IMG/VR virus record: IMGVR_UViG_3300026549_001031
Strand: one strand, 5' to 3'
Source: a virus
Taxonomy: Duplodnaviria > Heunggongvirae > Uroviricota > Caudoviricetes
Length of the DNA: 64,000 nucleotides
The position numbers were made by a program, and so were the translations under genes. Within the stretch, counting starts at the first letter, position 1. The number at the start of each line of letters is the position of its first letter. Positions 4,328 through 46,092 of the stretch are shown one piece after another. The notes under the pieces are model-generated. The model made no database searches, was not told where the DNA came from, and saw only the letters and a program-made list of their open reading frames with translations.

Positions 4328-5110
4328 ATGAGTTTCGACATGAGAAATAGGGCGCATGAGCAGTATAAACTTATGAATAACTATTATGGAAAAGAGATTA
4401 AAGCATGTGTAGAAAAGACTAAGGTTTACAGAACAAAGGTAGAGGGCATTGATGAAAGAGTTGGACAAGGTCACTTTAGCAGAGTTCAGCGATTAGAGGA
4501 CTGTGGTACATCTGATGCAATTATGTCATGCACTAAAGCTCAAGGCAGGGTTGCAGCACTGAACTTCGCATCATTTAAGAATCCTGGCGGTGGCTTTATG
4601 AATGGAAGTAAAGCACAGGAAGAGATGTTATGTCATGATTCATTCTTGTACAACGTCTTAGAAAAAGAGACCAACTTCTATGAGGAAAATAGGAGAGATG
4701 TGAATAGGGGAATGTATTACAATGCTGCACTATATTCACCTGATGTTACATTTGTTGAGGCAGACACACGTGGAATTAAGAGAGAAAAGGCATGTGATAT
4801 TATTACATGCGCAGCACCTAATTGGTCAGCAGCAAGTAAAAATGGTATTAGCATAAGTGAATGTAATAAGGCATTAAGAGAAAGAATTGAGTTTATTTTA
4901 GATGTGGCACAGGCTAATCATGTTGACACATTGATTTTAGGAGCATTTGGCTGTGGCGTATTTAAGAATGATCCTAGGGTTGTGATTGAAACATTTGAAA
5001 AGACACTAAATAAAGAGAAATACACCATCAGAGAAGTAATATATGCAGTACCTAATAAGAAGAGTGACAACTATAAGGCATTCGATGCATACTTGAGTAA
5101 GGAGGAATAG
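4328..5110 (+). CDS. TIGR02452/DUF2263 family macrodomain (bacterial-type PAR glycohydrolase)
   Basis: LNFASFKNPGGGF...AQEE, ITCAAPN and LILGAFGCGVFKN motifs. Confidence 0.9.
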   Translation: MSFDMRNRAHEQYKLMNNYYGKEIKACVEKTKVYRTKVEGIDERVGQGHFSRVQRLEDCGTSDAIMSCTKAQGRVAALNFASFKNPGGGFMNGSKAQEEMLCHDSFLYNVLEKETNFYEENRRDVNRGMYYNAALYSPDVTFVEADTRGIKREKACDIITCAAPNWSAASKNGISISECNKALRERIEFILDVAQANHVDTLILGAFGCGVFKNDPRVVIETFEKTLNKEKYTIREVIYAVPNKKSDNYKAFDAYLSKEE

Positions 5111-5475: not shown

Positions 5476-5504
5476 TTGACAAAATGAGCAAAATATGATA
5501 TAAT
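5476..5504 (+). promoter_or_regulatory. sigma-A-like promoter upstream of a 74-aa ORF and the array
   Basis: TTGACA-17nt-TATAAT with TG extension. Confidence 0.8.
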
Positions 5505-5535: not shown

Positions 5536-5760
5536 ATGGAGAGAAGAGCATCTAGGGAGGTTAGTTTAACAGATAAAGAAAAAATTCAGCAGGAGTTTTT
5601 TGCAGATGAGCGTAAAGCTAATGAAGAAAGACATGGTGGGGTTTATGAGAAAGACCCGTTCTATTGGGGTTTATTCACTTCAGAACAGAAAGCACAGGAG
5701 CAGAGAGCATTAGCACGTAGAGAAAAGCGTCTGGCTCAACAGGCAGAGACACTTGATTAA
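5536..5760 (+). CDS. hypothetical protein immediately upstream of the array
   Basis: ORF after promoter and SD. Confidence 0.6.
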   Translation: MERRASREVSLTDKEKIQQEFFADERKANEERHGGVYEKDPFYWGLFTSEQKAQEQRALARREKRLAQQAETLD

Positions 5761-5803: not shown

Positions 5804-8800
5804 AATATATCAAGATAAATAATAAACATTGTCGCATCGGAGTGAATCCTTAAGCGGAATCAGTATTAGAATGTGAAAGCGTATCATAAAACGAAATAAA
5901 CATTAAGATATTAAAGTGTATCAAAGGCTTTGATAAGCATTAAGTCATTCGAGTGAATCAGTATTGGAATGTGAAGGCATATCATAAAACAAAATAAACA
6001 TTACGATATTAAAGTGTATCATAAAGGCAAATAAGAATTGGATTACGCAAGTGTATCAAAAAATCTTATAAGCATTGCAAATATAAAGTGAATCAATCTT
6101 GATAGAAATAGGTATTGGAAAAATAGAGTTAATCAATGAGAGTAATAGGCATTGTCACATTCGAGTGAATCATGAGGTACAATAAGCATTGGAAAATTTA
6201 AGTGAATCACGATGACAAATAAGCATTGAAAAAATTAAGTGAATCAAAAATGGTAATAAGCATTGGAAAGATCTAGTATATCAAAATCATTTATATACAT
6301 TGGAAAAATATAGTGTATCAAAAAGTTCAATAAGCATTAAAAGAAAAAAAAGTGAATCAGAGGAAAGGATAAACATTAGCCATGTCGAGTGTATCATAGG
6401 ACAGAATAAAAATTATGCTGGAACAGTATATGAAGTGAATCATACAGAAATAAACATGTGTCAGGGCAAGGAAATAAAATTACTATGTACAAGCGTGTTA
6501 AAATGTCATAATGATTAAGCATCAGTATGAAAACCAAGCGTATCAGAATAAATAATAAACATTAAAATCGCGGAGTGTGTCGTGATAACTAAGCATTAGA
6601 ATATCAGAATAAATAATAAACATTAAAGTCAGAGAGTGTGTCACTGGAGTCAAGAATCAATAAGACGGCAAAGCGTATCATCGTCCACTAATAACATTAA
6701 AATGGCAAAGTGTGTCAGAGCTGGAAAGCATAATTACAAATTTGCAGCGTATCAATAAAAAATAAGTCACATTAAATTATGTAAGTGAGTCATGTCAAAC
6801 GATCAGTATTATGGTGCGATAGCGTATCAATAGAAGAGATTAGAATTATAATGAGTGAGTGTATCATAGTGGGGAATAAACATTGAAAAAACAAAGTGTA
6901 TCAGCATTGGAAAAAAGTAGTGAGTCACAGTGTCTTACGAACATTAAGTTTAAATAGTGTATCAATTTAGTAAATAAACATCATAAGTGATGAGTGTGTC
7001 ATGGGCGAGGAGATTAAAATTATTATGTATAAGCGTGTCGCAGAATGTGAACAGCATTAAGTGTGTCGAGCGTATCAGGTTCAATAATTTACATTATAAG
7101 AAGTGAGTGTGTCAAACTGATTAAACATCAGTAGAAAAAATTAGCGTATCAGGTTCAATAATTTACATTGCAAGAAGTGAGTGTGTCAAAATGCATAAGC
7201 ATAATTAATGCTGGGTAACGTATCAAATCGAAGCATCAACATTGTTTCTATAAAGTGTGTCAGAGCGGATAAGCATAATCAAGTACAAGTAGCGTATCAT
7301 AAGTAACTATCAGCATTAAATGATATAAGTGAGTCATATTTGATGATCAGTATTAGAGAGCTGAAGTGTATCAATTGCTGTGATTAACATTAAAAGTTGC
7401 GAGTGGATCAGTTAAAAAAAATGAGAATTAAAATGATGAGTGCACCATAGGAGGGAATCAGCATTGATGTATTTGAGTGTACCAGAACAGTGATAGACAT
7501 TGAGGTTTTAGTGGGTCGTAGGAGGAAAATAAATATTATAGACGATTAGCGTATCACATCATAGTTATAAAAAATGAAATACATATCACAATCGTTAATC
7601 AACATTAACAAAAAATAGTGTATCGACAAAGAAGATAGAAATTATGCTATGAAAGTGTGTCAAGGGGAAATAAAAAATTAAGCTATAAAAGCGTATCATA
7701 AAAAAATAATAGACATTATACTAGAAAAGTGAATCATAGTAGATTTATCACTATTGCAATTGAAATTGAGATATGGAGTGAATCAGAATAGGGTTATGGG
7801 AAAGCAGTCAAAAGTATTATTAAGGGCACTAATGATTTTTGTAGGACTTGCCATATTTGAGTCAGTGCTTCAGAATAAAAATTGTTTAGCAGCTGGTTTA
7901 AGTATTACAGGATATTACATACTTATACTTGTTGTTTCCTACATTGCAGGAAAAGTAAGTAGAAAGAGAAATAAAAGAGATACACACCAAAGAGGTTGAA
8001 CATACATTAGAATAAAGAGTGTATCATAGATAAAAATATAATAGTAAGTCAAGCAAGTGGGTCATTCATTAAAATCAACATTTTAGAAGGCTAGCGGACC
8101 AGAAAGTAAAAGTAAGGGCAATAGATGTAAGTGTATCAACGAGTGCTGATTAGACATTATAGAAAATTAGTGGATCAAATGCTATAATAAATAACATTAG
8201 AGTTAAGTGTATCAATAGAAGCAATTAACATTAGAATACTGTAGTGGGTCATGTTATTAAATACAAATCTGAAGGACATAGCGTATCATCACAAAAAACT
8301 AACATTGTAAAGTGTAAGTGAATCGCAATAAAGGATAAGAATTAATTTGAGGTAGTGAATCAACAGTAACAATTAACATTGGTACAAAATAGTGTATCAG
8401 TTCGAGAATGGGTAGTGTGTCGTGGAGAGATATCAACATTGTTTATATTAGCGTATCAGGGCATGAAATTAACATTGTAATTAAATAATGTATCATATCA
8501 AAGCTATGAATCAGCATTGTTTTAGTTTAGTGTATCAAAAACGAAATTAACATTAAATTAATGAGTGTGTCAGATAAGAAAAGGTTAATTGAGTAGACAA
8601 AGCGTATCATTGTAGAGAATAAGCATTAAGATGTGGAGTGTATCATTAGTAATAACTAACATTTGTAAAGATAAGTGTACCAACGAAATCAATCGACATT
8701 AAGATAAATAAGTGAGTGTGTCATAAGGAGGTAATCAACATTAATGATAATAAGCGTATCAGAAAAGCAAAATTAACATTGCATTTATTTAGTGAATCAC

Positions 8801-10110
8801 AATAAAGAATAAGCATTATGCTATTTAAGTGAATCATAGGAGAAAATTGGCATTAAAAAACCTTAGTGAGTCATGTGAACCTATTAGCATCACTTACCTA
8901 AAGCGTACCTAAGAAAAAATTAGCATTATTTAATTCAAGTGGATCATAAGAGAAAATTAAAATCATTGCTCTCTAGTGAGTCACCATGATCAATAAACAA
9001 CACGTGAAATTAGCGTATCAAAGGTTGAAATCAACATTGATGTACTTTAGTGAGTCATAACCAACAATAAGCAGTTTCCCTATGCAGCGTATCAGAAAAT
9101 AAGATCAACATTGAAATTGATGAGTGAGTCATTATAGCCAATAAATAACATGGATAGATAGCGTATCAATGTCTGTTAGTAACATTACGACTGTGAAGTG
9201 TATCATATCTGGCGAATTAAAATTGTGGGCAGTAAGTGCATAAGTTCAGCGAAACAACGTTAGAAAGAATAAGTGAATCATTGACAAATGTAGTTTATCA
9301 AATAGAAAAATCAACATTAAATTTTATTAGTGTATCAATATAAAATGATAATATATCAGGATGGTTAATTAGCATTACAGATATTTAGTGCATCAACATA
9401 CGTTATTAAAATTGTGCGTGTAAAGTGTATCACCAGTATTCATAAAGATTAGCATATCAAAGTTCTAGAATACTATTATAAAATTGGGGTGAGCCATAAG
9501 AATAAACAAACATTATGTGACGTTAGCGTATCAGGTTTAATAATAAACATTGTAATAATTTAGTGAATCTTATCAGCAATCTGATTAGCATTAGGAGAAA
9601 AAAGTGTATCACAATATTTAACTAACGTTGAGAAATACGAGTGTATCACTTTAGCATATCAAACAAACAGAACAACATTAAGTAATAAGAGTGTGTCATT
9701 GGAAAAAATCGAGATCAACATATCAGAGCGTACCGATATATTGAATTGACATTGCATCTAGTGAGTGAATCGACATTGCAAACAAACATTATGTGACGTT
9801 AGTGGGTCACCTCCTTAAATATAAAATCATAGAAAATTAGCGTATCATTTTTGAAAATAAACATTGGTGGAAATTAGTGAGTCATTCTTTTTAATATAAA
9901 ATTAAAAAAGAATAACGTATCATTTGGTTGAATCAACATTGAGAAGAGTTAGTGAATCATAGTAAAAAATAAACAATACAAAGTATGAGTGCATCAATCA
10001 AAAAAATAAACATTTAGTGATGTGAGTGTATCATATCAGGCAATTTAAGTCATATAAATGTTTAGCATATCAAATGAGTATATCAACATTGTAATTATTA
10101 AAGTGTTTCG
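5804..10110 (+). repeat. TIGR-like dual-repeat guide RNA array (~37-nt units, roughly 100+ units)
   Basis: Period of 37 nt: edge repeat AG[T/C]G[T/A/G][A/G]TCA, ~9 variable nt, loop repeat AT[A/C]A[A/G]CA(TT[A/G]), ~9 variable nt; non-coding; unit ends covary; interrupted at ~7785-7995. Confidence 0.88.
7796..7999 (+). CDS. small 2-TM membrane protein inserted in the array
   Basis: Periodicity stops across ~7785-7995; ORF has two hydrophobic helices and a basic tail; weak SD. Confidence 0.5.
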   Translation: MGKQSKVLLRALMIFVGLAIFESVLQNKNCLAAGLSITGYYILILVVSYIAGKVSRKRNKRDTHQRG

Positions 10111-10134: not shown

Positions 10135-10902
10135 ATGAAGTATATGGGTTCTAAAGCCTCAATAGCAAGTGAAATTTTACCTTTCATTCATAACTATATA
10201 TTTTTAAACAGTATAGATACATACATTGAGCCTTTTATGGGTGGATGTAACATGATTGATAAGGTTCAATGTAGTAAAAGATTAGCATATGATAAAAATA
10301 AATACCTTGTATCATTGTTTCAATACTTACAGAATGGTGGAGAGTTGCCTGAAGAAGTATCAAGAGAGCAATACAATGATTGTAGAGTACACTACAAGGC
10401 GAAAGATAACTTCTATGCAGATTGGTTCACAGGTGCAGTTGGTTTCCTTGCAGGGTTTAATGGCAGGTTCTATGATGGGGGATATGGAGGTACATCAGGT
10501 TCAGGTGATACATTCAGAGACTACTATCAGGAGAGTAAGGCAAACATCTTAAATCAAATGAAAGACCTTACAGATGTGGAATTTGCAGTGTCAGATTATA
10601 GGGAGTTACATCCTAGTGGCTGTTTGGTTTATATGGATCCTCCTTATGCAGGTACAAAAGGATACATGACAATCACAAAAGAGTTTAATCACAAAGAGTT
10701 TTGGGAGATTGCAAGAGAGTGGAGTAAGGATAACATAGTTTTAATTAGTGAGGAACAAGCTCCTGATGATTTTGACATATTGTGGCAGGCAGAGGTAAAT
10801 AGAAACATACATGTCACAAATAAGGGTAAAGCAACAGAGAAGCTATTTATACATAGTTCAATAAATGATAAATCAGATAAAGATATCTTATTGGACTTCT
10901 AG
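10135..10902 (+). CDS. DNA adenine methyltransferase (Dam/D12 class)
   Basis: KYMGSK, EPFMGG and YMDPPY motifs. Confidence 0.9.
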   Translation: MKYMGSKASIASEILPFIHNYIFLNSIDTYIEPFMGGCNMIDKVQCSKRLAYDKNKYLVSLFQYLQNGGELPEEVSREQYNDCRVHYKAKDNFYADWFTGAVGFLAGFNGRFYDGGYGGTSGSGDTFRDYYQESKANILNQMKDLTDVEFAVSDYRELHPSGCLVYMDPPYAGTKGYMTITKEFNHKEFWEIAREWSKDNIVLISEEQAPDDFDILWQAEVNRNIHVTNKGKATEKLFIHSSINDKSDKDILLDF

Positions 10903-10960
10903 TTCTACACTCCATGCAAATAAGAGAAAATTTTATTTTTATTTGTGAAAGGAGAAGGAC

Positions 10961-12730
10961 ATGGCTAAAGAGAAGTTGCATCCTGCATTAGTCAGAGAGT
11001 CAAAGAAAACAATTGATGAAGCAATACAAAAGTTGAATGACTTTGGTAAGGTATTTGTTTGTAGACCTACTGGTTTTGGTAAGACATATATGCTAATTCA
11101 AGTAGCTAAGTTTTATAACAAGCTATACCCTGATAAAAAGATTGGATACATTTATCCATTGGATATTATACCTTCAGAGATTAAGGTTAAATATGGAAAG
11201 AACAGTGATGATAGTGAAGTAAGGGCAGCTGTTAAGAATTTGGAGTTTATTTCTTATATGACCTTAACACGTAGAATAAATGAGAGGGGCAATGATTTTT
11301 GGTTAAATCAGTTTAAGGATAAATACTCCATATTGTTAGTAGACGAAGTACATGCAGCAGGTTCTGCAGGCTTTAGACAGGTTTATGACTCCATTAAAGA
11401 TATAATTGGACCTGAGGCAGGGCAGTTGAAAATGATTGGAGTGACAGCTACTCCAAACAGAATGGACGATGAAGAAGATAAATCAGTCTTGAATGATATA
11501 TTTGATAACATTCAAGTGTATGAATATACATTAGCTAATTGTATCATGGACGGTATTATTGATAAGTTGGTCATTGGTACTTATAAATATAACATGAAAG
11601 AGTTAGCAGAGCAGTTAAAGGGAGAGACAAAAGCAAAGGCAACTAAAGCAGGACTAAAGTTTAATGATGAATCATTCAATGTGGAATTAGGGAAGATCAT
11701 TAAAGAAAATGGTACAGAAGCAGAGTTCCTTTATAAGTACCTTGCTTTGGCAGGCTATGACCTTAGCAAACAGAATGAGAAATACTTTAAATTCATAGTA
11801 TTTTTCAATAATATACAGGATGTTGCAGAGAGAGGACCTATAGTTGAGGGATGGTTTAGCAGTGCTTTTAATGAAGTTGCAAAGAGTAAATTAGGGCTCA
11901 AGCGTGACTTCTTGGTTAGGGCACATTACTTAACTTCAAGTGATACAGAGGATGGTTTAATAGATACTCTGGTAGAGGAGGATAAGAAGCATAGGTTTAA
12001 GTATAATAACACTAAGAAATTGACTAGTGTACAAATGAAAGATAAATATATCGTTGACTTGATAATGACAGTCAATATGACAAATATGGGTTATCATGAC
12101 GATGATATAACAGGCATAGTAATGTTAAGAGGTACACGTTCAGAAATTGTTTATTATCAGCAATTAGGTAGGGCGATATCAGTTACAAATGAGCATAATC
12201 CTTTGATTTATGACTTTGTAAATAATGTTAATACAAAGTTTTGGAGTAAGAAAGACAGACAGAGTGAGATTGCTAGCAAGGTACTTGGTGGTGGAGCAGA
12301 CGAGAGAACAGGTGAGGGCATTGACTATTCTAAGTTTGTTGCATCAGCAGATGGAGATTATGATGCAGGTGATGCATTCTTGAACAGATGGAGTGACATT
12401 TACTATTCTGAGAAGGCACAGCTGGAATACTTGTATAATGATAGGAAAGCACCATTGGTTGCTATTTCAGCTGACACAGGTAAGAGTTGTTCATACATTG
12501 CAAAGGCATTGATAGAGGATGGTGTTACATTAAGACCAGAAGATGGCATGTACAAATATGAACTTAAGATCGCTGAATCAAAAGTGAGAAGCAAGGAAGA
12601 AAGAATGAATGCATGTGCAATTATGAAGTATCTGCTTAGTAAAGGAGCTTCAGACATGTATACAAAAATAAGAAAGACAGAAGAGACAATATACAATAAG
12701 ATTTCAAAATTGATCAAAGGTGGTAAATAG
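10961..12730 (+). CDS. SF2 (ResIII/DExH-type) helicase/ATPase
   Basis: RPTGFGKT Walker A, DEVH, TATP and YYQQLGRA motifs. Confidence 0.85.
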   Translation: MAKEKLHPALVRESKKTIDEAIQKLNDFGKVFVCRPTGFGKTYMLIQVAKFYNKLYPDKKIGYIYPLDIIPSEIKVKYGKNSDDSEVRAAVKNLEFISYMTLTRRINERGNDFWLNQFKDKYSILLVDEVHAAGSAGFRQVYDSIKDIIGPEAGQLKMIGVTATPNRMDDEEDKSVLNDIFDNIQVYEYTLANCIMDGIIDKLVIGTYKYNMKELAEQLKGETKAKATKAGLKFNDESFNVELGKIIKENGTEAEFLYKYLALAGYDLSKQNEKYFKFIVFFNNIQDVAERGPIVEGWFSSAFNEVAKSKLGLKRDFLVRAHYLTSSDTEDGLIDTLVEEDKKHRFKYNNTKKLTSVQMKDKYIVDLIMTVNMTNMGYHDDDITGIVMLRGTRSEIVYYQQLGRAISVTNEHNPLIYDFVNNVNTKFWSKKDRQSEIASKVLGGGADERTGEGIDYSKFVASADGDYDAGDAFLNRWSDIYYSEKAQLEYLYNDRKAPLVAISADTGKSCSYIAKALIEDGVTLRPEDGMYKYELKIAESKVRSKEERMNACAIMKYLLSKGASDMYTKIRKTEETIYNKISKLIKGGK

Positions 12731-12734
12731 AGGT

Positions 12735-14225
12735 ATGAAGTATAAGTCAGGAGATAGATTAGGGAATACAACCTTATATGTGGAGCAGACATATTACTCA
12801 AAGGTCATTTGTCGTTGTCAGAAATGCCTTGAAAGTGATGTTTACACAGAGGAGGAATTGGATTTTGGCACTGGTTGTAGAATCTGTGACAATATTAGCA
12901 GAGAAAAGCAGAGGTTAGTAATTTCACCTACAACTGATATGAAGAATGTAGCTAAGTTGTATGCAAAGCAGACGTACAGAAGTGGTTCAACAGTAGCATT
13001 TACGATGCCTGCAGGCTATAAGCTTGATGGGGTCGGCGTTGGAAGTGAGTTTGGACAGTTCAGAGTACAGGACTTTGTAGGTAAGGTTTATAGAAATGGC
13101 AATGGCTGGAAACATGGTGATCCTAAGCAAGTAGTTGCAATCTGTAAGTATTGTGAGACATACAGCAGGTTGATTGATGTTAGCAAGGTTGCAGAGTATA
13201 TTAAGACAGGTAAGGGTTTAGATGTACAGTGTCCTTGTTGTGGTAAGATCATCAATGAGGCTAGAGGCAGAGTTGATGCACTTAAGAAAAATAAGTCAGA
13301 GCATCTGAAAAAGGTGGTTGCAAAGAACAATAGCAACGAGGCTAAGAAAACTACAGAGGATGGGATTTCAAAGCTTATCAGTAGAGTTAAATCACCTTTG
13401 GATAATGTGAAGCCTGGTAGTAAAATTGACAAGCTTTTAAGTAAAGTTAAAAGCATGAATGCTGATTTAGATATACAGGATATTGAACCAATTAAGTCAA
13501 GCTACAAAGTGGTTTGTACATGTGGTAAATGCGGTACAGAAGTAAGTGTTTTGAGTTCTAACAGGAGTAAAGAGGTTGAATGTCCTGGTTGTAAATTAAA
13601 AGCAACAGACATCAATTATGTTGGTGCTTATAAGAGAAATTACGTAGGCACTACTAAAAACTTAATGGAACTTCTGGGAAGAGATGGAGATACATGTACC
13701 GTTAAGTGTAATTCATGTGGTAGGGTTTATACAAACATTAAGTTTTATGACTGGTATAAAGGAAAGGTCATTTGTAATTGTGATAATAACACACTGACTG
13801 ATGTGCTATGCAATGAGTGTGGTGAGTTTATGACAATACCTTTGGGTAAGGTCATTGGTAAGGTAGACAATACAGAAGAGATTGTATGCAATAAGTGTGG
13901 AGCTAAGTCAGGTCATACTTATGGAGAGATCTATGATGATTATTTGGAAGCACCTAGTGTAGCAATCACTACAAGTAATAAATTAGGTGTGGCTAGAAAG
14001 AAATTAAGAGAGTCTACTGAAAAAGTAAACAATGAGCTTGTGAGAACAAAAGAGCCATTGTTCATTGGAACAGATGGCAAGATGTATTACAGATGTACTT
14101 GTTTGATTCATGACTCTGACATGATATTAAATGATGATGAGATTGCAGTATTTAATCATCAACAGTGTACTGATGCAAGACAGCATATGATGAAGGATAT
14201 AAACAAGGATAATGTTAAGTTCTAA
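12735..14225 (+). CDS. multi-zinc-ribbon cysteine-rich protein
   Basis: About ten CxxC/CxC clusters; ATG at 12735 after GAGGT SD. Confidence 0.7.
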   Translation: MKYKSGDRLGNTTLYVEQTYYSKVICRCQKCLESDVYTEEELDFGTGCRICDNISREKQRLVISPTTDMKNVAKLYAKQTYRSGSTVAFTMPAGYKLDGVGVGSEFGQFRVQDFVGKVYRNGNGWKHGDPKQVVAICKYCETYSRLIDVSKVAEYIKTGKGLDVQCPCCGKIINEARGRVDALKKNKSEHLKKVVAKNNSNEAKKTTEDGISKLISRVKSPLDNVKPGSKIDKLLSKVKSMNADLDIQDIEPIKSSYKVVCTCGKCGTEVSVLSSNRSKEVECPGCKLKATDINYVGAYKRNYVGTTKNLMELLGRDGDTCTVKCNSCGRVYTNIKFYDWYKGKVICNCDNNTLTDVLCNECGEFMTIPLGKVIGKVDNTEEIVCNKCGAKSGHTYGEIYDDYLEAPSVAITTSNKLGVARKKLRESTEKVNNELVRTKEPLFIGTDGKMYYRCTCLIHDSDMILNDDEIAVFNHQQCTDARQHMMKDINKDNVKF

Positions 14226-14610
14226 GAAGAAAATTGAGATTAACATGAGAGTTTACAGGATGTTGCATTATGAAAATGATGTAATGTCCTGTATTTTTGT
14301 ACAGTGGTAAATATATGATATGCAGTTCAATAGACATTGATTAAGAATCTGCATTTTTTAAGAAATTGATTTTTGTGTGACAAAAGAGAGGAATGACTTC
14401 AGAATTTTCAGGTACTTCAGAACGCTAGTCCTCGACATTGGGTCAAAAATAGGGTAAGCATTGAGAAAAATTTAGCTAGACAGTCAAGGTTCCAAAAATT
14501 GGTGCAAAATAAAAGATTTTCTGTGAGTGAGAATAGTTTAGAGGAATAGAATTGTATATAAAATTTAAGAAATTGTTTGTAGTATATGAACAATTTACAA
14601 GAATTAGAGG

Positions 14611-15958: not shown

Positions 15959-17347
15959 ATGCAATTTACAGTAGGACAGCAGTTAGGATTTAATATAATA
16001 CTTAATGGATGGAATACCTTCATTACAGGGGGTGGTGGTGTAGGTAAAACAGAACTTATACTAAAAACAGCTGAACACTTACAAAATATAGGTAAGTCAG
16101 TAATGATGTGTGCACCTACAGGTATGGCGGCATTGAAAATAAATGGAGTTACAGTACACAGACAGTTTAATGCACCTGTTGGAGTATTGAATTACAGGAG
16201 AGACATGTATGGTGCGGATGATGAACTCATCAAAACTGATGTGCTGATCATGGATGAGGTTAGTATGTGCAGAGTAGACTTATTTGACTTTGTATGTAAT
16301 AAGGTACTTGATGCAAATAGAGTTAGACATAATATGGGTTTGGAGGATATACAGTTCATATTAGTAGGAGACTTCTTTCAGTTAGCACCTGTACTTTTAC
16401 CTAATGAGAAGATTGCATTGGATAAATACTATGGTAAGGATATGGATGCAGGATATGCATTTATGTCAAAGTTTTGGGACATGTTCAATTTTGTACCTGT
16501 CATACTTACAGAGGTAGTCAGACAGAGAGACAGTAATTTTATATTAGACCTTAACAAAATAAGAGGCGGCGACAAGGTTTATGTAAACTACATTTATGAA
16601 AATTCAAATAAAAATGAAATTGATTGGGCAATTACTATTTGTGGTACTAACAGTGAGGCTTCAGAGATAAACACTAGGAGATTAAGAGAGATTAATGAGG
16701 AATCTACCTTCTATGAAGCAATAACAGAGGGGGATGTGTTACCTACAGATGTAAATGCAGATTTCATGTTGGAATTAAGAGAGGGTGCAAGAGTAATTGT
16801 AATAGTGAACAGTAGTGAAAGTGGTAGTTACAAGAATGGAAGTCTTGGTACAGTAGTAGGTTTATATGACAATGAAGTAATTGTGCAACTGGATTCAGGT
16901 GAGACAGAGTCACTTATGAGATATACATGGCCTGTATTCAGATATAGCATAGAAAAAGACGAGTGTGGCATTGAAAAGTTAACGAAACAACAGGTAGGAA
17001 GTGTTACACAGTTTCCTCTGAAATTAGCATACGCTATCACAATACATAAGAGCCAAGGGCAGACTTATGATAAAGTAAACCTTAGTCCTTATAGTTGGGA
17101 TTGTGGACAGCTATATGTGGCAATTTCACGTGTAAGAAGTTTGGAGAATCTTCACTTTAATTATGCACCTGACTTAAGTTATGTAGTAGTTTCATTAAAT
17201 GTAATTAAGTTCCACAATAAGTTAGTTGAGATTGCTAATGCAAATGGTAATAAATACAGTATTGAAAAAAGACAGACAGCGACAAAAAAGAAGTCAGAGT
17301 TTGATTCAGATATGAGTTTACTTTTAAGTGGTTTAGGAGGACATTGA
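15959..17347 (+). CDS. Pif1-family SF1B DNA helicase (copy 1)
   Basis: GGGGVGKT, DEVSM, GDFFQLAPV, QFPLKLAYAITIHKSQGQT and GQLYVAISR. Confidence 0.92.
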   Translation: MQFTVGQQLGFNIILNGWNTFITGGGGVGKTELILKTAEHLQNIGKSVMMCAPTGMAALKINGVTVHRQFNAPVGVLNYRRDMYGADDELIKTDVLIMDEVSMCRVDLFDFVCNKVLDANRVRHNMGLEDIQFILVGDFFQLAPVLLPNEKIALDKYYGKDMDAGYAFMSKFWDMFNFVPVILTEVVRQRDSNFILDLNKIRGGDKVYVNYIYENSNKNEIDWAITICGTNSEASEINTRRLREINEESTFYEAITEGDVLPTDVNADFMLELREGARVIVIVNSSESGSYKNGSLGTVVGLYDNEVIVQLDSGETESLMRYTWPVFRYSIEKDECGIEKLTKQQVGSVTQFPLKLAYAITIHKSQGQTYDKVNLSPYSWDCGQLYVAISRVRSLENLHFNYAPDLSYVVVSLNVIKFHNKLVEIANANGNKYSIEKRQTATKKKSEFDSDMSLLLSGLGGH

Positions 17348-17348
17348 G

Positions 17349-18608
17349 ATGGCAATGTTAGCAAATGGAAAGTTTACAAACAGTCAGCAATTTGGGTTTG
17401 ACACAATAATGAGTGGTAGGAACTGTTTTGTAACTGGGGATGCAGGTACGGGAAAGAGTTTTCTACTCCTTAGAGTAGTTGATGCACTTAGTAAACAAAA
17501 GAAGAGAGTAAGAATAATGGCACCTACTGGGTTGGCTGCACTTAATGTAGATGGTGTGACATTGCATAGAGGATTTAAGGCACCTATTGGACCTCTGATT
17601 AAAGAACCTAAAGCTATAACTAGCATGCTGGGAGATTGTGATGTGCTTATTATTGATGAGGTGAGCATGGTTCGAATTGATTTGTTTGAATATTGTATCA
17701 AACAAGTTGTTGGTGCTAACGTGAAGAGACGAAAGGCAGAATTGCCTGATATACAGCTGATTTTGTTTGGAGACTTCTTTCAGTTACCTCCTGTACTTAC
17801 ACCTGGTGACAGAGACATACTGAAAATGGTTTATGGGGACATTGATAAGGGATATGCCTTTAAGTCAAAATGGTGGGACATTTGCAATTTTACTTATATT
17901 TCATTAAAAGAAATAGTTAGACAGGATAATGTTGAATTGCAGAGAGCACTTGAGCAGTTAAGAAGAGGTAATACACTAGGATTGAAATTTATACTTCAGA
18001 ATTGTAGTGATGAGCCTATCAAAAATGCAATTTCATTGTGTGGTACACGTAAAAAAGCAGATGCAATCAATGCAGAAAAATATAATATGCTGACTGGTAG
18101 GGAAAAGACATATACAAGTGAAGTTGAGGGCGAGGTAAGAGATAGTGATAAGCCTGTAGATGATGAGATAAGTCTTAAGATTGGTGCTAGGGTACTTGCA
18201 TTTATGAATAATCCTGCAGCTGGATATATGAATGGAGACATGGGAGAAGTTATTAACCTTAATGAATACACAGTTACAGTTAAGTTTGATAATGGAACAG
18301 TTGCTGACGTGGAGCAGGCATCTTGGTATATTAAGGGCTGGAATGAAAAGACTCAGGACATTGAGATAATTGGTACATACAGTCAAATTCCTCTTAAGCT
18401 TGCCTATGCAATTACAATACATAAAAGTCAAGGACAGACATATGATGCAGTCAACCTTGATCCTAGGTGTTGGGAGAATGGGCAGTTGTATACAGCATTG
18501 TCACGTGTCAGAGATGTGCATAACCTGTATCTGATGGACATTATGTATCCTAGTTACTTAAAAGCATCTAGGGATGTGCGTATGTTTTATAAAATGAATA
18601 ACATGTAG
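17349..18608 (+). CDS. Pif1-family SF1B DNA helicase (copy 2)
   Basis: GDAGTGKS, DEVSM, GDFFQLPPV, QIPLKLAYAITIHKSQGQT and GQLYTALSR. Confidence 0.92.
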   Translation: MAMLANGKFTNSQQFGFDTIMSGRNCFVTGDAGTGKSFLLLRVVDALSKQKKRVRIMAPTGLAALNVDGVTLHRGFKAPIGPLIKEPKAITSMLGDCDVLIIDEVSMVRIDLFEYCIKQVVGANVKRRKAELPDIQLILFGDFFQLPPVLTPGDRDILKMVYGDIDKGYAFKSKWWDICNFTYISLKEIVRQDNVELQRALEQLRRGNTLGLKFILQNCSDEPIKNAISLCGTRKKADAINAEKYNMLTGREKTYTSEVEGEVRDSDKPVDDEISLKIGARVLAFMNNPAAGYMNGDMGEVINLNEYTVTVKFDNGTVADVEQASWYIKGWNEKTQDIEIIGTYSQIPLKLAYAITIHKSQGQTYDAVNLDPRCWENGQLYTALSRVRDVHNLYLMDIMYPSYLKASRDVRMFYKMNNM

Positions 18609-44139: not shown

Positions 44140-46092
44140 ATGGATAGATTAGTTAGAGTTGCAACTATTTCTCCTCGTGTACATGTGGGAAATGTGGATG
44201 CTAACATTAATGAAATCAAAGAGGCATATGAAAAACTTGTAAACAAGCACGGTAATGTGAATATCGTGGTTACACCTGAACTTAGCTTATGTGGGTATAC
44301 TGCACAGGATCTGATGTTTAATCAGTCAATATCTGATTACTTTGCAGAGGATAAAATTACAGCTAGCATTGATGCATTGATCAATTCAGTGCATTATGGA
44401 ACAATACTTGTAGTTGGTGCTCCTGTTGTAGTAAATAATGCAATGTATAATTGTGCTATTATCATTGCAGCAGGTGAGGTACTTGGGGTTGCTCCTAAAT
44501 GTTACTTACCTAATTACAATGAGTTCTATGAAAAAAGATGGTTTAACAGTGGTTTTGATGCTCAAACAACATCAATTAAACTTTGGAGACAGCAGGTACC
44601 TTTTGGTAGATCATTGGTGTTTAATACTGGAGACTTCAAGTTTGGAGTAGAACTTTGTGAAGATTTATGGGCACCTAATCCTCCTTCAGTAGACATGGCA
44701 CTTAATGGGGCAGAGGTAATTCTTAATCTGTCAGCAAGTAATGAGACCATTGGTAAAAGTGATTACAGACGTTCATTAGTAGCACAGCAGAGTGCTAGAT
44801 GCATTTGTGGATATGTGTATTGCTCAGCAGGCAGTAGTGAGAGTACATCTGATATTGTGTTTAGTGGGCATAGCATGATTGCAGAGAATGGTTCAATTCT
44901 TTCAGAAGCACGGTTGTTTGATAAGAACAATAGTATTCTTGTGAATGACATTGATCTCAACAAGATTAGACACGATAGAATGGTTAATAAAACATTTACA
45001 TTTGGACCTAAAGAGTCATTGAGAGAGATCCGATTAAAATGTAGACATAGACAGGTTGGCGGCGGTTACAGACATAACTATGATCATACAATAAGAGAAA
45101 TCAGCATTACACCTTTTGTACCTAGACTTACAGAGTCAGATAAGAGATGTGATGAGATCTTTAACATTCAGACAGAGGCACTGGCAAGAAGATGGGAGAG
45201 CATTGGTTGTGAAAATGCAGTCATTGGTGTTTCAGGTGGTTTAGACAGTACACTTGCATTACTGGTTGCAGTTGGGGCAGCTGATAAACTTGGATATGAT
45301 CATAGCAGAGTATTAGGTATTACAATGCCTTGTTTTGGAACAACATCAAGAACAAAGAGTAATGCAGTGAAACTCATGGATGTGCTTGGTGTTTCATCTA
45401 GAGAGATCGATATTAAGGCAAGTGTTAAGCAGCACTTAAAAGATATTGGACTTTCAGAGGATGATAGAAGCCTTGCTTATGAAAATGCACAGGCACGTGA
45501 AAGAACACAGATACTTATGGATATTGCAAATATGAGCAGTGGATTTGTGATTGGTACAGGAGATTTAAGTGAACTTGCATTAGGGTGGTGTACTTATAAT
45601 GGGGATCATATGTCAATGTATGGTGCGAACAGCAGTATACCTAAGACATTAGTAAGGACACTGGTTGAAAGAGTAGGCTTAACAATAGCAAACACTTTTG
45701 ATAGGGATGCACGTAGTGAGATGATTGATTGCATCAAAGACATTCTTGCAACACCTGTTTCACCTGAATTACTTCCTCCTTCAGAAGATGGCACTATTGC
45801 TCAGCTTACAGAAGATAGTGTTGGACCTTATGTATTAAACGATTTCTTCCTGTATTATACATTAAGGTTTGGGTTTAGCAGAGAAATGATCATTTCATAT
45901 GCAGTTGAGGCATGTCAACAGAGTGAGAATTACAAGTATTCAGAGGGAGAGATCACTTATTGGTTAGATAAGTTCATTAAGAGATTCAAGAGGGCACAGT
46001 TCAAACGTAACTGTTGTCCTGATGGAATCAAGGTAGGTTCAGTATCACTTAGTCCTCGTGGAGATTGGCGGATGGCAAGTGAAGTAGAATAA
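44140..46092 (+). CDS. nadE: glutamine-dependent NAD+ synthetase
   Basis: Nitrilase domain (TPELSLCGY, PKCYLPNYNEFYE, ELCEDLW) plus SGGLDST, ENAQARERT and GTGDLSELALGWCTYNGD. Confidence 0.95.
   Translation: MDRLVRVATISPRVHVGNVDANINEIKEAYEKLVNKHGNVNIVVTPELSLCGYTAQDLMFNQSISDYFAEDKITASIDALINSVHYGTILVVGAPVVVNNAMYNCAIIIAAGEVLGVAPKCYLPNYNEFYEKRWFNSGFDAQTTSIKLWRQQVPFGRSLVFNTGDFKFGVELCEDLWAPNPPSVDMALNGAEVILNLSASNETIGKSDYRRSLVAQQSARCICGYVYCSAGSSESTSDIVFSGHSMIAENGSILSEARLFDKNNSILVNDIDLNKIRHDRMVNKTFTFGPKESLREIRLKCRHRQVGGGYRHNYDHTIREISITPFVPRLTESDKRCDEIFNIQTEALARRWESIGCENAVIGVSGGLDSTLALLVAVGAADKLGYDHSRVLGITMPCFGTTSRTKSNAVKLMDVLGVSSREIDIKASVKQHLKDIGLSEDDRSLAYENAQARERTQILMDIANMSSGFVIGTGDLSELALGWCTYNGDHMSMYGANSSIPKTLVRTLVERVGLTIANTFDRDARSEMIDCIKDILATPVSPELLPPSEDGTIAQLTEDSVGPYVLNDFFLYYTLRFGFSREMIISYAVEACQQSENYKYSEGEITYWLDKFIKRFKRAQFKRNCCPDGIKVGSVSLSPRGDWRMASEVE

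Follow-up and report, generated by a model that had tools for sequence, protein, structure and literature searches.

The 64,000-nucleotide (nt) stretch of viral record IMGVR_UViG_3300026549_001031 analysed here (the window) raises a question of identity and of partnership. It carries about 4.3 kb of short alternating repeats at 5804-10110 that look like a TIGR guide-RNA array, and a gene for a Tas-like protein lies ~48 kb away, at 57790-59043. Are the repeats such an array, and do the two belong together? Our analysis favours, with fairly good confidence, a dual-repeat TIGR-TasA system whose parts lie ~48 kb apart, in which the array would be transcribed from a promoter at 5476 and cut at its edge repeats by TasA into 37-nt guides, directing recognition of ~18 bp across both DNA strands and blocking the bound site without cutting it. 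What can be read from the sequence is the array, its 37-nt register, a selected pair between guide ends, a TasA gene that is intact and conserved, and a split between the two that relatives keep.

Architecture and identity of the array

A 37-nt period with two alternating boxes over ~4.3 kb had been proposed from the sequence-only reading of this DNA, and it is borne out by autocorrelation peaks at 37, 74 and 111 nt, by column information confined to unit positions 1-9 and 19-28, and by the number of edge boxes. Each unit of the array, which reads on the + strand, consists of a 9-nt edge, a 9-nt spacer A, a 10-nt loop and a 9-nt spacer B. A profile-based parse recognized 87 well-formed units, of which 67 have exact 9+9-nt spacers, from a total of 110 edge boxes and 98 loop boxes, and the same parse found no well-formed unit in 12 control segments of 4.4 kb elsewhere in the window. 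The edge consensus is AG(T/C)G(T/A)(A/G)TCA and that of the loop AT(A/C/T)A(A/G)CAT(T/C)(A/G); their final triplets are alike (TCA and T(T/C)(A/G)), whereas box D differs, AG in the edge and AT in the loop. Both spacer segments carry ~0 bits, save for an A bias at the final base of spacer A. The first unit begins at 5804 and the last, truncated edge occupies 10102-10110, and the earlier coordinates and example units proved exact. The loop register is ambiguous: loop positions 1 and 8 pair in 171 of 181 guide clusters and positions 2 and 7 in 141 of 181, and the sequence would also accommodate, besides a 10-nt loop, a 9-nt loop with a 10-nt spacer B or an 8-nt spacer A.

The earlier description stands for the period, the boxes and the ~9-nt segments but not for continuity. 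About one fifth of the units are broken or off-register, and a 67-amino-acid hydrophobic open reading frame (ORF; 7796-7999, + strand) breaks into the array at about 7786-8017, inserted between the edge box and a loop-like box of one unit. This ORF, in which two membrane helices are predicted by eye, has no Pfam match, shares 95-100% identity among 12 relatives of one lineage and is missing from the other lineage. Similarly, spacers described as mostly unique do form near-0-bit segments, but several units are duplicated and the spacers are thus partly non-unique. In the region 6635-7290, units closed by G-C and by A-U alternate, giving a 74-nt higher-order period, and in several of the G-C units the loop core is displaced by ~3 nt in the direction of spacer A with the 37-nt unit length unchanged. 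An Rfam scan returned only a tRNA and no CRISPR match for the array, and folding of single guides gave no significant structure, as expected for guides held by a protein.

Dual-repeat TIGR arrays consist of two alternating 8-12-nt repeats with 9-nt spacers (PMC12045711). The 37-nt unit exceeds the typical 36 nt by one base, and 37-nt units are also found beside tas genes. The most telling observation is a covariation between neighbouring repeats: base 6 of an edge has its partner in base 3 of the following edge, the pair being Watson-Crick in 61 of 64 window units (48 A-U and 13 G-C; Fisher p=1.1e-10) and in 177 of 181 guide clusters, with compensatory A-U and G-C changes, while no positive association links bases 6 and 3 inside a single edge. 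In the TasR structure, different edge repeats, that is the two ends of the processed guide, are likewise paired (PMC12045711, legend of Fig. 6G). The edge-to-next-edge covariation therefore fixes the strand, identifies the edge box and implies selection on cut 37-nt RNAs. The window edge differs at only 1-2 bases from that of FpTIGR and matches those found next to the closest Tas relatives that possess an array (L001, L127), and viral arrays adjacent to tas in three further loci (L054, L057, L061) share the 9-9-10-9 layout of the window array and have a nearly identical loop. We rejected a minus-strand reading, as gene orientation, the promoter and the box match to known arrays favour the + strand. 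On the combined grounds of architecture, edge and loop match to tas-adjacent arrays and covariation, the proposed assignment of 5804-10110 as a dual-repeat TIGR array appears well supported.

The remote Tas protein and the conserved split

The ORF at 57790-59043 (+ strand), which had been singled out as Nop-like, encodes a protein whose only PDB sequence matches are TaTasR (9MTY, E 4.5e-9) and SpTasH (E 2.1e-8). A structure model (pLDDT 80) has TasH and TasR complexes as its ten best fold matches, followed by weak matches to IS110, and the protein is 41% identical to P0119, a protein that looks, on inspection by eye, almost identical to FpTasA, which has been studied experimentally. The reading as a real Nop-like ORF is thus upheld by sequence and fold. 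Its description as nuclease-less also holds: there is no Pfam match and hence no Pfam nuclease, the PDB matches span only the coiled-coil and Nop parts, and the coiled-coil helix of the model begins at residue 11, so that too few residues precede it for a nuclease. Sequence matches, fold and alignment support a predicted TasA made of a coiled coil and a Nop domain, with no N-terminal HNH or RuvC domain and with a long helical insertion at about residues 59-167. An IS110 bridge recombinase was rejected because neither Pfam nor the model reveals an N-terminal DEDD/RuvC-like catalytic domain. Y384 aligns with the processing tyrosine Y289 of SpTasH, and H394 is invariant across the 39 rows of an alignment and in all 118 homologues scored, among them ones with intact adjacent arrays. 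Among orthologues from the window's family of replicons, nonsynonymous divergence (dN) is 0.022-0.024 and synonymous divergence (dS) 0.34-0.35, and TasA is, by this dN/dS ratio of about 0.07, under purifying selection. The protein had no match in the plasmid collection and only distant matches in phages, and its motifs were not found in the examined part of Table S1 of PMC12045711.

The tas gene is adjacent to the array in all described TIGR-Tas loci, which is not so here. It starts 47.7 kb past the array end and 47,655 bp from the methyltransferase gene marking the array's end, and the corresponding distance in three relatives, each on a single contig, is 45,319, 45,063 and 45,036 bp; the split layout first noticed in the window is therefore real and a separation of ~45 kb is kept. 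No array lies near tas in the window or within 10 kb of it in four orthologous loci, and gene calls from the 10 kb around the array in the relatives examined include no tas. An adjacent array is likewise missing from the three TasA relatives that are closest outside the family. At 76 of 91 Tas homologue loci, on the other hand, we counted at least four phased edge boxes (a rough count, as some loci are redundant). The number beside homologous tas genes has a median of 14 and a maximum of 89, against 97 for the window array by the same count, and the array first called unusually large is thus extreme but not unique. When one replicon carries an array whose scaffold is under selection but no tas close to it, and a tas under selection but no array close to it, the simplest reading is that the two work together, and we infer that the array and the 57790-59043 TasA are cognate. 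Such an array would have escaped neighbourhood-based searches, as the sequence-only reading had anticipated, since published surveys start at tas loci and the motif search took only 5-kb flanks around tas (PMC12045711), so that arrays tens of kilobases away are missed.

The window was drawn from a 496,540-bp contig, and the gut metagenome contigs that carry orthologues reach 550 kb; its replicon could be either a jumbo phage or a megaplasmid. The family comprises dozens of strains in human and livestock gut assemblies, and we found no description of it in the literature.

Several arrays at other tas loci were noticed as well. One tas-adjacent 36-nt array in a 600-kb contig (L127, 11274-15100) is split by resolvase and TnpB genes of an IS607-like element, and such splitting could be one way in which the separation of array and tas starts. 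The array with 89 phased edge boxes extends over 3.7 kb (L018, 2712-6431). In a viral record of 250 kb (L006, 8100-9800), TIGR arrays with units of ~38-39 nt and a lengthened edge precede a tas gene of the gut clade, and a heavily degenerate TIGR-like array lies upstream of the tas gene of P0081 in a 474-kb contig (L125, 8700-9900).

Array evolution, mechanism and alternatives

Comparison of 17 orthologous arrays from two lineages (438 distinct spacer pairs in 224 clusters) shows a collinear unit order, both array ends common to the lineages, and an even spread of strain-private units (11, 11, 15, 13 and 17 per successive fifth of the array), which together argue against a CRISPR-like growth end. 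Internal insertions and deletions separate the orthologous arrays, and adjacent duplicates, indicative of tandem duplication, occur in 11 clusters. An identical spacer A is combined with an unrelated B in 16 pairs and an identical B with an unrelated A in 24, against ~2 each by chance, the pairs not being independent of one another. In five disjoint strain pairs, box positions diverge by 1.2-1.5%, about threefold slower than fourfold-degenerate sites (4.2%), and spacers by 3.7-5.2%; depending on the pairing threshold, pooled spacer divergence is 5.2% (p=0.02) or 3.7% (p=0.22) against 4.2%. A hypervariability of spacers at 1.5-3 times the synonymous rate, obtained with three genes, was rejected, as the rate is about neutral when 7-16 genes and disjoint pairs are used. 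In five relatives (L093, L097, L098, L100 and L101), the first ~20 units are swapped for a different block accompanied by an extra 94-amino-acid ORF, so that the start of the array, as the sequences read, was replaced as a block.

Spacers A and B both match the composition and skew of the carrier's + strand, and spacer composition follows the carrier in ordinary tas-adjacent arrays too. If a skewed target supplied the two halves from its two strands, A and B would be expected to be skewed in opposite directions, and the common skew thus fits poorly with capture, although selection for purine-rich RNA could also cause it. The comparison favours, without proving it, renewal of spacers in place rather than capture. 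A bolder version, in which guides are made in place by duplication, mutation and re-pairing of halves with no capture of foreign DNA, selection acts on the scaffold only and the remote TasA uses the guides as a broad, largely random library for surveillance or silencing, is conceivable but on present evidence doubtful.

The mechanism that we propose for the dual-repeat TIGR-TasA system would begin with + strand transcription of the array from the promoter at 5476. A TasA dimer would bind edge and loop boxes in trans and cut mid-edge, after base 4, using the Y384/H394 pair, which would free about 90-100 different 37-nt guides. For SpTasH, Tas-dependent cutting within each edge repeat has been demonstrated. 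Guide and TasA would then recognize ~18 bp of double-stranded DNA, with spacer A on one strand and spacer B on the other, and the nuclease-free TasA would clamp the site and thereby keep competing mobile elements or host genes, the most likely targets, from being transcribed or replicated. Blocking without cutting has been demonstrated for nuclease-dead TasR and for a stem-loop-class TasA, the latter as repression (bioRxiv 10.64898/2026.09.09.750476). Point mutations, duplications and losses of units and new combinations of A and B halves would renew the guide library where it stands, and neither end would serve for polar acquisition.

Several observations weigh against this mechanism. The closest Tas relatives with an array of their own have 36-nt units and 9-nt loops, and 37-nt arrays adjoin Tas proteins of a different clade than the window protein in a FastTree phylogeny from which some redundant or partial rows were left out. 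The catalytic H296 of SpTasH aligns to M391, the conserved H394 lying three residues later. Spacers drift at about the neutral rate with no conservation of seed positions, unlike the prediction for fixed essential targets, and the search for a second tas covered ~15% of the 496-kb replicon. Finally, the paired-spacer targets put forward with the earlier reading were not apparent in the DNA that we searched. Looking for spacer A beside the reverse complement of spacer B in 8 registers, with three control geometries and shuffled pairs, we found no excess over either kind of control in 73 kb of the element's own DNA, nor any target above controls in a total of ~310 kb that included related elements and no host genome.

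The genes around the array bear on the remaining explanations. A sigma-70-type promoter with an extended -10 (5476-5504, + strand; 12/12 consensus match) likely drives the array transcript. Between it and the array lies a 74-amino-acid ORF of no known family (5536-5760, + strand), at which position all full-length relatives have an ORF of 74-81 amino acids. Downstream, Pfam identifies a D12-class adenine methyltransferase, an SF2 helicase and a cysteine-rich, Zn-ribbon-like gene (10135-14225, + strand). No terminator is called between array and methyltransferase, the next + strand site being a predicted intrinsic terminator-like hairpin at 14254-14293 that closes the probable transcription unit; the array thus probably shares a transcript with the 74-amino-acid ORF, the methyltransferase, the helicase and the Zn-ribbon-like gene. 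A distant relative with 43% identity keeps the helicase and the Zn-ribbon gene and has neither methyltransferase nor array. On the other side of the gap, a free-standing HNH gene (55918-56325) lies two genes upstream of tas and is kept in the family, with one gene and promoter-like sites in between; it is missing from the tas neighbourhood of P0002-P0005. A predicted complex of TasA with the HNH protein scored 0.00, a value that speaks neither for nor against an association.

A large Ter stress-response cluster (18716-55556) with C-C lyase, ATP-grasp, phosphoribosyltransferase (PRTase), StiP, YceG, TelA and several TerD paralogues takes up much of the DNA that separates the array from tas. Genes related to nicotinamide adenine dinucleotide (NAD) and ADP-ribose (Tpt1/KptA, PARG, NAD synthase) occur at 1319-1897, 4328-5110 and 44140-46092. 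In four related elements, L001, L112, L113 and L116, tas adjoins a NUDIX-NrtR and isochorismatase cluster, two of these loci also having NAMPT and PRTase; these genes and clusters are possibly an NAD-restoring counter-defence. The window further contains two tandem Dda/PIF1-like helicase paralogues (15959-18608) and a single tRNA-Met (CAT) gene (2243-2316), and in one relative (L099, from 19734) an IS605-type TnpB gene replaces the DUF1002 gene of its relatives.

The best surviving alternative, still an improbable one, is that the scaffold outweighs the spacers: TasA would cut the 5′ part of the methyltransferase-helicase-Zn-ribbon transcript, or be titrated by it, and most guides would have no target. 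It is consistent with the constraint on boxes and end-pairing next to spacers that drift at about the synonymous rate (3.7-5.2% against 4.2%) with a transition-rich substitution spectrum, with the + strand composition and skew copied by A and B alike, with the uninterrupted path from array into methyltransferase and with the empty target search. However, every strain has 65-105 distinct units with exact 9-nt spacing, far beyond what a processing switch needs; composition tracks the carrier in ordinary tas-adjacent arrays as well, a mixture of purifying and diversifying selection could average to a neutral rate, and host genomes lay beyond the DNA searched for targets.

Slightly less probable still is that a true TIGR array is served by a second Tas elsewhere on the replicon, possibly of the 37-nt clade and possibly with a nuclease, while the 57790-59043 protein uses other guides or none. 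The window loop is nearly identical to the L054 and L061 loops, whose Tas proteins belong to a different clade; the fraction of the replicon examined leaves room for such a gene, and some of the three closest array-less TasA relatives could be guide-less. On the contrary, the window edge belongs to the gut-clade type, as do those next to P0005 and P0038, and the window TasA keeps its Y/H pair under purifying selection. Moreover, a search with the L054 Tas, a weak one limited to representatives, yielded among its best 120 matches no many-member cluster and no contig of 0.4-0.55 Mb.

We regard as quite unlikely an effector formed by the methyltransferase-helicase-Zn-ribbon block or by the free-standing HNH protein, with guided methylation or cleavage. 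In all family members the three genes do come after the array and are probably transcribed with it, and the HNH gene keeps its place two genes upstream of tas. Nevertheless, the 43%-identical relative retains helicase and Zn-ribbon gene with neither array nor methyltransferase, none of the downstream proteins has a Nop domain match, and the HNH gene is both absent near the tas of P0002-P0005 and separated from the window tas by a gene and promoter-like sites. As for a decaying, non-functional repeat or a protein-binding DNA array such as an iteron or partition site, iteron-like arrays are present on large replicons and about one fifth of the units are broken, but compensatory pairing between different repeats makes sense only on a processed RNA and the architecture matches that of tas-adjacent arrays, so that we give this explanation hardly any weight.

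Relation to known RNA-guided systems

We found no description in the papers searched of a remote array, of an array of this size, of the asymmetric 37-nt unit or of a strain series such as this one. Array-less Tas proteins, posed as an open question (bioRxiv 10.64898/2026.09.09.750476), may be misread by tas-centred surveys. Spacer origin and array expansion are named as unknown in PMC12045711 and bioRxiv 10.64898/2026.09.09.750476, and the dozens of gut strains allow array evolution to be read directly. The lack of polarity, the duplications, the A/B re-pairing and the near-neutral drift are unlike CRISPR-style acquisition, and in-place guide generation, if true, would answer how TIGR arrays expand without adaptation machinery. 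The system would also provide a compact, nuclease-free DNA binder that works with 37-nt guides and comes with a natively multiplexed array of ~100 of them.

One of the closest known systems is FpTIGR/FpTasA of Flavonifractor plautii (Faure et al. 2025, PMC12045711), which shares a solo Nop-domain TasA (41% identity to P0119), an edge with an AG box D that differs at 1-2 positions, 9-nt spacers and a gut Clostridia context. It differs in having its array adjacent rather than 48 kb away and typically 5-15 units rather than ~110, whereas the window array has a 37-nt unit with an asymmetric 10-nt loop and no terminator directly after it, and the window TasA is longer by ~125 residues, most of which form a helical insertion at the tip of the coiled coil. 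SpTIGR-TasH of Salicola phage CGphi29 (PDB 9W03/9W04/21KL) and TaTIGR-TasR (PDB 9MTY) give the best sequence and fold matches and have in common the edge type, the end-to-end edge pair and the aligned tyrosine of the processing dyad, SpTIGR also sharing the A-biased final base of spacer A; unlike TasH and TasR, the window TasA has no HNH or RuvC domain, and its histidine lies 10 residues past the tyrosine instead of 7. Three viral TasA loci (IMGVR_UViG_3300036833_000235, _3300036834_000114 and _3300036785_000787) have the same 9-9-10-9 architecture and a nearly identical loop consensus, but their arrays are tas-adjacent, consist of 29-36 units and are G+C-rich, with a Tas of another clade. IS110 bridge recombinases have the Nop-like RNA-binding fold in common with the window protein, as the weak fold matches show, whereas the latter has no DEDD/RuvC domain. 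CRISPR arrays are also built of repeats and spacers, but those of the window are 9-10 nt long and there is no polar addition of spacers. Apart from adjacency, the system proposed for the window is a dual-repeat TIGR-TasA.

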